Shown: in pieces, positions 18,324 through 59,439 of the stretch
Numbering within the stretch: the stretch's first letter is position 1
Layout: each line of letters begins with the position of its first letter
DNA from: Octopus vulgaris
Lineage: Eukaryota
DNA: 64,000 nt
Reading direction: 5' to 3'
Assembly: GCA_951406725.2 (NCBI GenBank)
Contig: OX597822.1
Span: 44,454,001-44,518,000 of the forward strand
Translations under genes and position numbers: made by a program
The notes under the pieces: model-generated
Databases searched by the model: none
Told to the model about the DNA's origin: nothing
Seen by the model: only the letters and a program-made list of their open reading frames with translations

Positions 18324-18749
18324 TATCAATTTATTTTGCAGTTGATTAATCAGAGGAAAAGGAAGGATTCATGCCCCATTTTCGGGGCCTTCGACAGCTA
18401 CATGAGAAAAGTATCTACTTTGAAGCCAGACACGTCAGCTTGACCCTTACACCAGATTACTATGAGCACCCAAGGACCATATGATACTATTAAAACAAGC
18501 AGTCATAGCAACACACGAATAGACTAAGATAGGATTTGAAATAAGAACTCAAGAAGCCGTAACAAAAATCCAACATGTGTTCAGCAATGGCTCTCATCCA
18601 GGGTCCATATCAGATTTCAGGGGATCCACGTAAGCAAAATAGAAAATTGGGTACGCACATATGTATATATTGCGTCCGTGGAAGGATCATACTGTTGATG
18701 AGTTTATTGCAAGAAACAAGCATATTACTTTCTCTAACGCTTTACAGAG

Positions 18750-18903
18750 TGACTTTGTGGTAAGAAACTTGCTTCTCAACTACATAGTTCCGGGTTCAGT
18801 TCCTCTGCCTGGCACCTTGGACAAGTGTCTTCTACTATAGCATCAGGTCCACCAAAAACCTTGTGAGTGGATTTGGTAGATGGAAACTGAAAGAAGCCCC
18901 TCA
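18750..18903 (+). mobile_element. SINE family 1, 5' half
   Basis: Head through gaaactgaaagaagccc. Confidence 0.8.
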
Positions 18904-19266
18904 TACATATATATAAATATATAATTATTATCGCTGTTGTTGCTTGTTTCCACTTTTTCGAGATCAGTGACGTTTCGTCACTGGAAAAAGTATATATCTT
19001 TGCATTGAGAATAGCTTCCCATCGCCAACCGCTGGTTGTCAAACTCGGGTCCATGTACATGATATCAGGTTGGAGATGGGAACGATGACTTCCCTTTGCA
19101 AATAGTGGTAGGGCAAAGACAGTGTGTCAATAGCCAGCTGGAGGAAATGTCTTCCTGGGTCTACAATCTACAGTAGCATCAACATTTAAGGGCTAGTCTC
19201 ATTTATGTGGCAAATATAATTCACGATGTCGTACGGCTACTGTTTACACCTCGCTCAGAGATTTAT

Positions 19267-19519
<253 letters not shown>

Positions 19520-21883: not shown

Positions 21884-21972
<89 letters not shown>

Positions 21973-21975
<3 letters not shown>

Positions 21976-22145
21976 TACAAAAAAGACAAAAGACGAAGAT
22001 GGGTGTGTAAACAACAATCAGATGTATTAGTTCAACGCTCGAAAGTGAGAAAGTCTTTTACGTTGCGAGCCAAAGTTCTTCAACAGAATGGAACACGAGA
22101 AAATAAACAGAGAGAGAAAATATTAAAAGGTTTAGTGGTTAGCGA
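21973..22145 (-). mobile_element. Family A short HHR-bearing element, degenerate copy
   Basis: Minus strand reads ctgttgaagaactttggctcgcaacgtaaaagactttctcactt...ctaatacatctg, homologous to the copies at 34370, 42965 and 59225. It ends at a (GA)n/(TA)n tract. Confidence 0.65.
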
Positions 22146-22223
22146 TATATATATCTATAAATGTATATACATGCACACACATGCTGAGCCGGGATGTAAT
22201 CGCTCCACCGTCGACTCGAGATT

Positions 22224-27405: not shown

Positions 27406-27696
27406 CAGGGTTTCCCAACCATTTTTTTAATCTATTGATTACGATTGTATTGAAATGGACTCCCTTAGCCATTCGATGCCTAAAAATTGGTTTTATACAA
27501 ACTATTTCAAAATTCCTATCATATAGGCGCAGGAGTGGCTGTGTGGTAAGTAGCTTGCTTACCAACCACATGGTTCCGGGTTCAGTCCCACTGCGTGACA
27601 TCTTGGGCAAGTGTCTTCTGCTATAGCCTCGGGCCGACCAATGCCTTGTGAGTGGATTTGGTAGATGGAAACTGAAAGAAGCCTGTCGTATATATG

Positions 27697-34369: not shown

Positions 34370-34540
34370 TTCATTTCCTCCCTGTTTATTTTCTTTTATT
34401 CCTTTCTGTTGAAGAGCGTATGCTCGAAACGTAAAAGACTTTCTCACCTTCCCGAGCGTCAAACTAATACACTTATTTGTTCACACACCTTTCTTCGTCT
34501 TTTGTTCTTCTATAAAATTCCGCTACATGTACTATAAATA
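34370..34540 (+). mobile_element. Family A short HHR-bearing element (HHR at 34402-34437)
   Basis: cttt-CTGTTGA-A-gagc(gtat)gctc-GAAAC-GTA^aaag, followed by the conserved family tail cccgagcgt.aaactaataca. Confidence 0.7.
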
Positions 34541-42693: not shown

Positions 42694-42964
42694 ATGTGGA
42701 GTGTATTGGATCAGCAGATCTATTAGAGGGATGAACAAGGTGGCTGCAGAAGTGGTAGGAGCGGTAGAAAGTGGGGCAAGGAGCAAAAATTACTGCGTAG
42801 TAAAAATCTGCTTCCCAGCGACTTGATTCTGGGTTCAGTCCCACTACGTGGAACCTTGATCAGATAGCTTCTTCTATAATCTTGGACTGAGCCAAGCCTT
42901 GTGAATGTATTTGATAGACGGACACTGAAAGAAGTCCGTCGTTTATTGCTAGCCAGAAAACCTG

Positions 42965-50511: not shown

Positions 50512-51376
50512 GCTACTGCTATTGTTGTTTTGTTTATAACGATAATGATGTTGATGGCGGTAGTGAGGTTGGGGTGGTGGAAGTGGTTGTGGTGGTGGAG
50601 GTTGTTGTGTGGTGGTGGTGTTTGATGGTGGTAGTGAGGGTGAGGCAGAGGGTGGTGTTGGTGTTAGTGGTGGTGGCGGCGTCGGTGGTGTTGCTGCTGA
50701 TGGTGATGGTGGTGGTGGTGGTGGTGGTGGTGGTGATGATGACAATGACAGTGATGATGATTATGATGATGAGGATGAGGATGATGATGATGATGACGAC
50801 GATGATGGCGATGGGGAATGTAATGACGATGATAATGATGACAGTGATGATGATGATGGTTATGACGGCGGTGACGGCGACGACGGCGATGACGATTATG
50901 GTGATGATGATTGTTGTTGCCATTAATGTTGAATCGCTGCCGCTCTTCATTTTGTTTTTCATTTTCATTTGCCTATGTTGTTGTTGTTCTTCTTCTTGTG
51001 GTTGCGGCTGTGGTTCCTGTTAAAGAATCTATTTTATAGCTTTCGTAATTGTTGTGTTTGTGGTTATTATTTTTGCTGCTGTTGTTGTTGTTCTGTTGTA
51101 GTTGTTGTGTAGTAATTTTATAATCTCCATCTTCCGATATCTGGAGCTTGGAACAGTATAATAATTTACAATTAGCCATAGGTCGACACGAAACGTGCGT
51201 GGATGATAAGATGCAAATAGGCGGAGGCATGGCTGTGTGGTAAGAAGATTGTTTCCCACTCACATGGTTCCGGGTTCAGACCCACTGCGTGGAACTTTGG
51301 GCTATTGCCGTCTACTATAGCCTCGGGCCGATCAAAGCCTTGTGAGTGAATTTGGTTGACGGAAATTGAAATGAGC

Positions 51377-51432
<56 letters not shown>

Positions 51433-51487
51433 TATATATATATACATATACATACAAATATATATATACATAATATATGTATATATG

Positions 51488-51553
<66 letters not shown>

Positions 51554-51651
51554 ATATGTATGTATATATTATAGAGATGTACTTGCATAGCAAGTGATCT
51601 GATCTGAGATCGTGTGTTGGAACGAAAAAAATTGCAGCGTGGAAGGTGTTT

Positions 51652-51871
51652 ATAAGCCATTTAAGAAACACACAAAAACCGTTAGATTCACTTCAACATT
51701 TAAATTTAATTTGCCAAAATATTTTCGTCGCTTTGAGACACTGACAAAATTCCGCGCTGCATTTTGTCAGTGAACAGGTCGCAGTTTCAAAGCGACGAAA
51801 ATGTTTTGGCAAATCAAATTTAAATGTTGAATTGAATATAACGGTTTTTGCGTGTTTCTTAAATGGCTTAT
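51652..51871. repeat. Imperfect long inverted repeat nested in the (TA)n of a SINE
   Basis: Arms at about 51652-51750 and 51761-51871 have a 10-nt spacer and several mismatches. The left arm lacks about 13 nt covering the ribozyme core. Confidence 0.9.
51763..51813 (+). ncRNA. Type I HHR motif with G3:C8 swapped core
   Basis: tttgtca-GTGAACA-g-gtcgc(agtttcaaa)gcgac-GAAA-atgt-TT^tggcaaa, with a 7-bp stem I and a 5-bp stem II. The left arm preserves the palindromic stem III AATATT. Confidence 0.7.
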
Positions 51872-52306
51872 GATCACCGCCCATGGTGCAATTGTATATA
51901 TATATACGTGCGTGGTGGGTGGTACTCCCGCCATCGCTTGACAGCTGATGTTCGTTCGTTTAAGTCCCTGAAACCTAGGCATGCAAAGAAAAGGCCCTGT
52001 GGTCGATTCGTTCGACTATAGGCGGTGCTTCAGTGTGGCTTCAGTCAAATGACTGAAACAAAAAAATTTAAAAATACGTACACACACACACATAAATATA
52101 TATAATAAAAATATGTTACAGACGAAAATAGAAACTACACGGGCAATTTTAAGGGGAAAGTAAGAAGAAAAATAAGCGAAAGTGCACATTGGAAATCAAA
52201 AAAAGTAAAGGCTTTTTATGAAAAGTAATGATATATATATATACAATTAGATGAATTGAGGTAGGAATAAAAGTAATAAAAGTCATTATTGTGAATTGTT
52301 AAAGAG

Positions 52307-59224: not shown

Positions 59225-59376
59225 ACACACATTCTTTTTTTCTCCTTGTTTCTTTCTGTGGAAGACCGTAGACTCGAAACGTTAAAGACTTTTTCAATTC
59301 CCGAGCGTTATACTAATACATCCGTTTGTTTTCTACACCACCTGTCTTCGTCTTTTGTTGTTTTTTTGTGAATTCT

Positions 59377-59380
<4 letters not shown>
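59225..59380 (+). mobile_element. Family A short HHR-bearing element (HHR at 59251-59288)
   Basis: tcttt-CTGTGGA-A-gaccgtagactc-GAAAC-GTT^aaaga plus the family tail, ending at (TA)n. Confidence 0.7.

Positions 59381-59439
<59 letters not shown>

Follow-up and report, generated by a model that had tools for sequence, protein, structure and literature searches.

Can the two bases of the 3-8 tertiary pair of a hammerhead ribozyme trade places in nature, and would such an RNA still cut itself? The question arises from a stretch of 64,000 nucleotides of Octopus vulgaris DNA (hereafter, the window), in which one locus carries a hammerhead-like motif with G at position 3 and C at position 8. Exchanging the two partners of this textbook tertiary contact has served as a rescue in the laboratory, and a high-copy natural family with G3:C8 would be a natural experiment. 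If the octopus motif cuts, its core would be kept by selection, which bears on whether the hammerheads of Penelope-like elements (PLEs) matter for transposition.

A hammerhead-type motif with G3 and C8

The motif lies at 51763-51813 on the plus strand and was recognized from a descriptor match, its fold, and the variation of its family. The core, GTGAACA (RNA GUGAACA), is at 51770-51776, with G3 at 51770, C8 at 51775, and A9 at 51776, and both stems I and II are present, as the preliminary description of the locus had reported. The functional stem I has 7 bp including one G-U (TTTGTCA at 51763-69 with TGGCAAA at 51807-13) and encloses the core on both sides, which in the window copy is the type I layout. 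An extra nucleotide, G, stands between positions 9 and 10.1 (51777), followed by a 5-bp stem II (GTCGC/GCGAC, 51778-82 with 51792-96), GAAA (G12-A15.1, 51797-51800), a 6-mer palindrome (51800-05), and U17 (H17=U, 51806), directly after which the cut is predicted. The 6-mer is perfect in the left arm of the locus and near-palindromic here, where it has two G-U pairs. The motif keeps U4, G5, A6, A9, G12, A13, A14, A15.1-U16.1, the closing pair G10.1-C11.1, and a Watson-Crick 3-8 pair. The canonical C3 and G8 (CUGANGA) are absent, both the window copy and its family having G3 and C8. A type III reading, with the central hairpin of the locus as stem I, was ruled out, there being no U16.1-H17 ahead of that hairpin.

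A descriptor that accepts any Watson-Crick 3-8 pair and requires the other core letters to be exact, together with the palindrome and stems I and II, matched once in the window vs no match in 60 dinucleotide-type shuffles (both strands, two stringencies). The hammerhead-type motif with its family-wide G3:C8 is real and not a product of chance. Rfam gave no hammerhead match at gathering score across the window, and none of its 17 matches at E<=10 within 51000-52300 was to Hammerhead_1 or its relatives. This is a blind spot of Rfam and of CUGANGA descriptors, which miss the G3:C8 family entirely.

The layout is that of the PLE hammerheads described by Cervera and de la Pena 2014 (PMC4209133): type I, with a dimer-pairing palindrome instead of a real stem III, an extra base between 9 and 10.1, the G10.1-C11.1 pair, a position in the terminal repeat, and the common U17. 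Like Drosophila virilis Penelope, the window motif also has a palindromic insertion of 2 nt. All the features listed for PLE hammerheads by Cervera and de la Pena are present, except for the identity of C3/G8 and the letter of the extra base, which is G here, unlike the published consensus H. Because of its G3 and C8, we file the window motif as a variant, not a canonical member, of the PLE minimal type I hammerheads. The 56 motifs in Fig. S3 of that paper include 53 with C3, 3 with U3, none with G3, and no cephalopod, and the 34 hammerhead rows in File S2 of PMC8557442 all begin with C3. By analogy with C3-G17 (PMC3884650), U17 might have been a coupled change avoiding a G3-C17 mispair; this idea was dropped, since U17 is common in C3:G8 PLE hammerheads (24 of the 56 motifs of Fig. 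S3, by our own count).

Natural departures from C3:G8 are in print. Cores with U3:A8 were reported by Perreault et al. 2011 (PMC3088659), and they occur in the Schistosoma Cercyon PLE family (~1,300 PLE-linked motifs; PMC4209133). The octopus motif resembles these variants in being a natural covariation at the 3-8 tertiary pair. It differs from them in that U3:A8 is a transition pair, whereas a purine at 3 and a pyrimidine at 8 make a true swap. The survey of Lunse et al. 2017, reportedly the largest one of PLE hammerheads, or the repeat databases may already contain natural cases; in the full-text passages covered here, hammerheads with G3:C8 appear only as engineered constructs (PMC11167929; PMC3884650), and those that combine octopus or cephalopod with Penelope, hammerhead, or ribozymes hold no natural G3:C8.

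Variation among the copies of the family

Part of the stretch was found in 20 of the 24 listed runs, which come from four organisms, plus a small share in one insect metagenome run. The family was tallied in 4 of the 24 runs, aligned on 51737-51895 at 80% likeness and a 2% share. Three are DNA runs from three organisms, namely X2 (organism A, 2,437 contigs), X3 (B, 1,657 contigs), and X8 (D, 3,297 contigs), and the fourth is the RNA run X24, with raw reads sampled at ~6% (848 reads). The resulting frequencies are pooled over copies that are related, and they do not represent independent events.

In each DNA run, the sole place with G>C in at least 2% is 51886, no place has C>G in at least 2%, and the places with C>T (8, 7, and 8) are all accounted for by listed rows at other positions. 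There is therefore no G>C of this share at position 3 and no C>G or C>T of this share at position 8, so that C3, G8, and U8 each make up less than 2% of the depth. X2, X3, and X8 all keep C3 and G8 below 2%, which makes G3:C8 the state of the family. The preliminary description had made its reading depend on G3 and C8 occurring together across the family, and they do. C17 is likewise below 2% in the DNA runs. Each DNA run also has a C>A place and one or two G>A places outside the listed rows, which the tally does not locate. For the RNA run, a canonical fraction below about one-tenth of the reads is possible, as two places with G>C and one with C>G lie outside its listed rows.

The variation within the family respects the fold, falling in loops, at the free extra base, or where pairing is kept. 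Positions 51783, 51786, and 51788 of loop II vary across the family, and A replaces G as the extra base in 65 of 588 RNA reads (~11%). At 51809 the family has either G or A, the latter in 47-51% of depth; stem I then contains U-G or U-A, and it is fully Watson-Crick with A. Two paired positions of stem II change at similar frequency in the RNA run (G>C at 51781 in 61/610 reads and C>G at 51793 in 72/662, unphased). In more than 99% of the family depth 51803 is A, which makes the palindrome perfect, and the G found there is private to the window copy. Subfamilies differ by organism: loose ends at 51808 carry a different 3' strand of stem I, with 5 Watson-Crick pairs retained. A sharp loss of depth over 51839-51868 was seen only in the DNA run of organism B (loose ends at 51856-51870). 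The reads of X24 split about equally between both orientations and have no pile-up of starts or ends across the stretch, which is a weak test since such libraries seldom retain ribozyme ends.

Depth also indicates what an ordinary copy looks like. In X2 it amounts to 0.6-1.4 thousand over the hairpin centre vs 380-530 thousand over the core, X3 and X8 are similar, and the centre has well under 1% of the body depth in the DNA runs. Hence, most family copies are single and lack the opposite arm; palindromic copies are underestimated, because assemblies break at palindromes. The majority of copies are not palindromes, and terminal inverted repeats are not the normal family form. An exact-pattern scan for family copies gave none in viral contigs and none in metagenome contigs, and no C3:G8 sister family was found.

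Two truncated ends placed head to head in a SINE

What kind of element carries the motif? The left arm holds the first 30 codons of a reading frame (51572..51660, minus strand, ATG 51660-58), assigned from protein matches. This 30-residue frame, P0001, has a single match at E<=0.001 among 1.84 billion proteins, which is P0004 of Octopus bimaculoides (E 8.5e-5, 81% over 26 residues). P0005 of O. sinensis aligns with P0001 up to the end of the window copy, continues beyond it, and overlaps P0006 and P0007 of O. vulgaris, which show PxKF, LRWR, DKSG, LYGLxKxHK, RPV, and DVxSLYPSI. The DKS form of the motif may point to the Neptune or Nematis clade. By eye, these motifs of reverse transcriptase (RT) type follow in P0007 the order of the published PLE alignment, which has Penelope, Poseidon, and Hydra proteins (PMC8557442 supplement). 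The link between hammerhead and RT is a chain of overlapping predicted proteins, not one DNA record. Profiles for RT in Pfam, NCBIfam, and PADLOC and the PDB sequences gave no confirmation, and the fold model is too low in confidence for use (pLDDT 32). No GIY-YIG domain appeared in the retrieved proteins, of which the longest (545 aa) ends just past the first RT aspartate motif. The ESM Atlas gave nothing useful for P0004; as a lead only, it has eukaryotic clusters with DUF8422 on 16-41% of members. No longer relatives were found for two other frames of the left arm, nor loci related to P0006 in metagenome contigs, viral contigs, or plasmids. Naiad_Obim, Naiad_Ovul, and Hydra-1_Obim were excluded as the identity of the element, as 0/6 of the family motif strings occur in the supplement of PMC8557442, in the version with long runs cut. 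The repeat likely represents a PLE terminal repeat, and the PLE is likely one of octopus. The O. sinensis gene model P0005 fuses ~210 residues of the frame of the element to a methyltransferase domain; this is likely a mis-annotation and possibly an exon capture.

The insert consists of two 5'-truncated ends of this element. The left arm (51572..51762, minus strand) runs from an ATG at the junction to +89 of the frame and is near the family majority. The right arm (51761..51895, plus strand) has the complete hammerhead and 13 private changes, and it ends at +33 of the frame, whose ATG is at 51863-65, with position 3 of the hammerhead lying 93 nt before the ATG. The insert had first been delimited as 51572..51871; its start is retained, and its right end moves to ~51895. 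Because the right arm ends at +33 and the left arm at +89 of the same frame, the left arm has a one-sided extension of ~56-58 nt between the two 3' end points, which corresponds to the "tail" of PLEs (51572..51629, minus strand). The arms are 89% complementary over 110 nt (51630-51739 with 51784-51893). The core segment was said to be lost from the opposite arm, and the left arm indeed lacks 12 nt, namely core positions 5/6-9, the extra nucleotide, and the 5' side of stem II, a gap that destroys its hammerhead.

The two copies meet in a head-to-head junction with a 12-bp hairpin (~51738..51772), where the left arm starts exactly at the junction ATG and overlaps the right arm by 2 nt (51761-62). 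Opposite-strand joints occur at 51761 and 51762 in all four runs, with several small junction variants. In other copies, the loose ends 5' of 51761 read as a pyrimidine run and CAG, then ATG (50-64% agreement), and in the RNA run TAAC stands ahead of these. This stretch resembles a splice acceptor, and the head-to-head junctions cluster beside it, at 51762. It recalls D. virilis Penelope, in which an intron ends at helix I (PMC4209133). Another inverted junction at 51762, with a short spacer, was present in 121 RNA reads.

Perfect inverted repeats are a common class of artefact, and the locus could in principle derive from a chimeric fold-back read in the library or the assembly, its odd core being a private mutation. 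We find this hardly credible: the arms differ at 12 of 121 columns and by the 12-nt deletion, G3 and C8 are the family state, and contigs that cross the same centre, with slightly differing junctions, occur in X2, X3, and X8, which come from three organisms. Of the 24 records shown, 4 extend over both the hairpin centre and the right arm, and each DNA run has such records. The early judgment that the palindrome is no artefact is therefore upheld. A second explanation is a DNA transposon of the fold-back or miniature type, whose long inverted arms would produce the hammerhead shape by chance, as a by-product of the palindrome. It would account for 110-nt inverted arms in a TA context, for the lack of an Rfam match, and for the inclusion of G3-U4-G5 in the central hairpin. 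Yet it is largely refuted and seems to us very improbable, since most family members are single and unpaired at well under 1% centre depth, stems I and II form within one arm alone, the arm ends are unequal, the frame leads to RT-type motifs, and the 60 shuffles yielded no motif.

A pair of truncated PLE ends accommodates these observations. An inverted 5'-truncated copy and a tail at one end only are published traits of PLEs (PMC8557442). The locus resembles the endonuclease-bearing PLEs (Penelope/Poseidon, Neptune, Nematis, Hydra, and Naiad; Craig et al. 2021, PMC8557442) in its 5'-truncated copies, the inverted copy at the 5' end, the single-end tail, the insertion in (TA)n, and, by eye in the linked Octopus proteins, the N-terminal RT motifs. 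Its tail has ~56-58 nt, vs the 30-40 bp given in that paper.

The preliminary description spoke of an aged palindrome, and the divergence of the arms is too uneven for this. Compared with the listed family majority, the right arm differs at 12/121 aligned columns and the left arm at 0/121 (binomial p=0.0005). A fuller count, including 51783 on the right, gives 13/133 changes on the right vs 3/191 on the left (p=0.001), where the three left-arm changes (one at 51755 and two residue differences from both P0004 and P0005) are a lower bound, the tail being outside the alignment. When the last 22 nt of the arms are left out, the asymmetry weakens to p=0.055, and six of the 13 private changes of the right arm cluster within these 22 nt, at 51872-51886, beside the insertion end. 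The changes are nearly all on the right arm (13 vs about 3), which implies that the arms were not identical at the start and then aged together. Rather than being one copy that was duplicated and then aged, the arms likely had two different templates, which could be of unequal age, or one arm was inserted later beside the other; conversion of the left arm could also account for the asymmetry. Editing from A to I was ruled out as the source of the right-arm changes, as the 13 are of mixed kinds.

The insert lies in a SINE. The 5' half of the host SINE, with a tRNA-type head (51217..51378, plus strand), is 83% identical to the copy at 27523-27684, and contains an A-box-like (51230-40) and a B-box-like element (51273-82). 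It is followed by the (TA)n-rich tract that was the target (51379..51571), in which a target duplication is indistinguishable from the repeat. Beyond the insert come (TA)6 (51895..51906) and the 3' half of the SINE (~51921..52065, plus strand), with an internal deletion at 51960-51975 of 36 columns that are present in four other copies. The window has 13 matches to the head and 14 to the tail of this SINE, forming 9 head-tail pairs with a normal (TA/TG)n linker of 4-253 nt. Here, the insert parts head from tail, which are on the same strand, and TA repeats stand on both sides, so the element does split a SINE at its internal (TA)n, as had been proposed. The further suggestion that SINEs are a special supply of TA targets is not supported: 14 of the 109 (TA)6+ tracts in the window are in SINE linkers (356 of 2,934 bases), 6 of these 14 are in the host SINE itself, and the window has a single copy of the G3:C8 family (n=1). 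An insertion bias toward (TA)n is a published trait of PLEs (PMC8557442). Elsewhere in the window, a SINE head (18747-18898) with a short TA tract is followed by a different insert (18925-19270), with no SINE tail nearby, and a palindrome at ~18965-18983 reads on the minus strand as a remnant of stem II, GAAA, CG, and UC.

Possible self-cleavage in the source element and predicted inactivity of the window copy

Could the motif cut? In an isolated 55-mer, the pairing probability is 0.7-1.0 for stem I and 0.67 for stem II. With both arms in the RNA, it is 0 for both stems. The 12-bp central hairpin is a rival pairing that takes in G3-U4-G5. In the minimum-energy fold, the core pairs with 51802-06, which the private G at 51803 makes possible. 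Given the loss of both stems when both arms are present, the private G, and the missing core on the minus strand, the window copy is predicted to be inactive and is likely locked in the hairpin. The folds do not support a reading of the locus itself as a working ribozyme.

The family is another matter, and the closest experimental system is PAc, the anole Poseidon element (Frangieh et al. 2024, PMC11167929). There, cleavage is lost with C3G alone or G8C alone and is partly regained in the double mutant. This result agrees with the earlier statement that a compensatory swap at 3-8 can retain activity, and it makes G3:C8 compatible with activity in the class of PLE hammerheads. In PAc, both target strands are nicked at AT-rich DNA and extended, and the tail spans the distance between two internal sites at which reverse transcription starts (PMC11167929). 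The octopus element and PAc share the swap in the same kind of hammerhead, a one-sided tail, and an AT-rich target, and the two internal starts and the extension of both strands would likewise apply to octopus. They differ in that G3:C8 is a laboratory rescue with partial activity in PAc and a natural family state in octopus, and in that the frame starts at stem II in PAc vs 93 nt after position 3 here.

The main rival to a working ribozyme is a hammerhead relic that does not cut. In such a case, G3 and C8 would have been fixed in one master by drift, or through a structural or sequence role, and would have spread with no need for cleavage. Insertion of PAc in vitro is independent of cleavage, as cleavage-dead mutants insert normally, and the RNA-seq reported in PMC11167929 has no ends at the cut site. 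Hence, selection on the core is uncertain. The lack of a pile-up of read ends in X24 is also what a relic would give, PLE minimal hammerheads cut slowly at best (PMC4209133), the extra base is G and not the consensus H, a second family in the window has U for A6 (see below), and thousands of copies from one master are one evolutionary event. Still, we judge a relic rather unlikely. Two changes that restore the one known tertiary pair, while the rest of the core and the palindrome are kept, would be improbable without selection on the fold, and the changes of the subfamilies sit in loops, at the free extra base, or where pairing is retained.

We therefore favor, as the probable reading, a head-to-head pair of truncated PLE ends, likely of octopus, in the (TA)n of a SINE, from a family whose G3:C8 likely preserves the 3-8 contact. 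The source element would thereby be able to cut itself weakly, likely in dimeric form or together with its protein, while the copy in the window is predicted to be inactive. From published work on PLEs, the insertion may have arisen as follows. The endonuclease of the element would nick AT-rich DNA on both strands, reverse transcription would begin at +33 and at +89 within the frame, and the resulting pair of short cDNAs would be joined head to head over a 2-nt overlap. In the source RNA, two hammerheads could pair via the palindromic 6-mer, form stem III, and cut after U17 (51806). Such cleavage would be slow, and perhaps occur only with the protein of the element, as reported for PLE hammerheads. 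A bolder version, which we advance tentatively and would not yet back, is that this octopus PLE lineage, with many thousands of copies, has a working natural G3:C8 hammerhead and would be the first animal lineage with the swap fixed, and that a dimeric enzyme makes its head-to-head insertions by priming both strands of the target on two different RNA copies, with products joined at the splice-acceptor ATG.

The fixation of G3:C8 across a high-copy octopus PLE family likely represents a natural variant of the self-cutting hammerhead RNAs, one missed by standard searches. If the motif works, PLE families called "hammerhead-less" may carry such variants. The surprise is moderate, because U3:A8 is published as a natural pair and G3:C8 as an engineered one, and because the palindrome, the tail, and the TA targeting are known PLE traits.

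A second repeat family in the window has the minimal-hammerhead layout, at 34406 (+), 5920 (-), and 43014 (+), with related copies at 21966-22146 (-) and 59247-59393 (+). Its motif has a 4-bp stem II, an extra A, an ACGT palindrome, A17, and a stem I of 4-5 bp, and its core is C3 U4 G5 U6 N7 G8 A9, with U at the normally fixed A6. This U6 could reflect relaxed cores in this genome. Of the five copies, four have (TA)n at their end, and one lies immediately after a SINE head (42809-42934).
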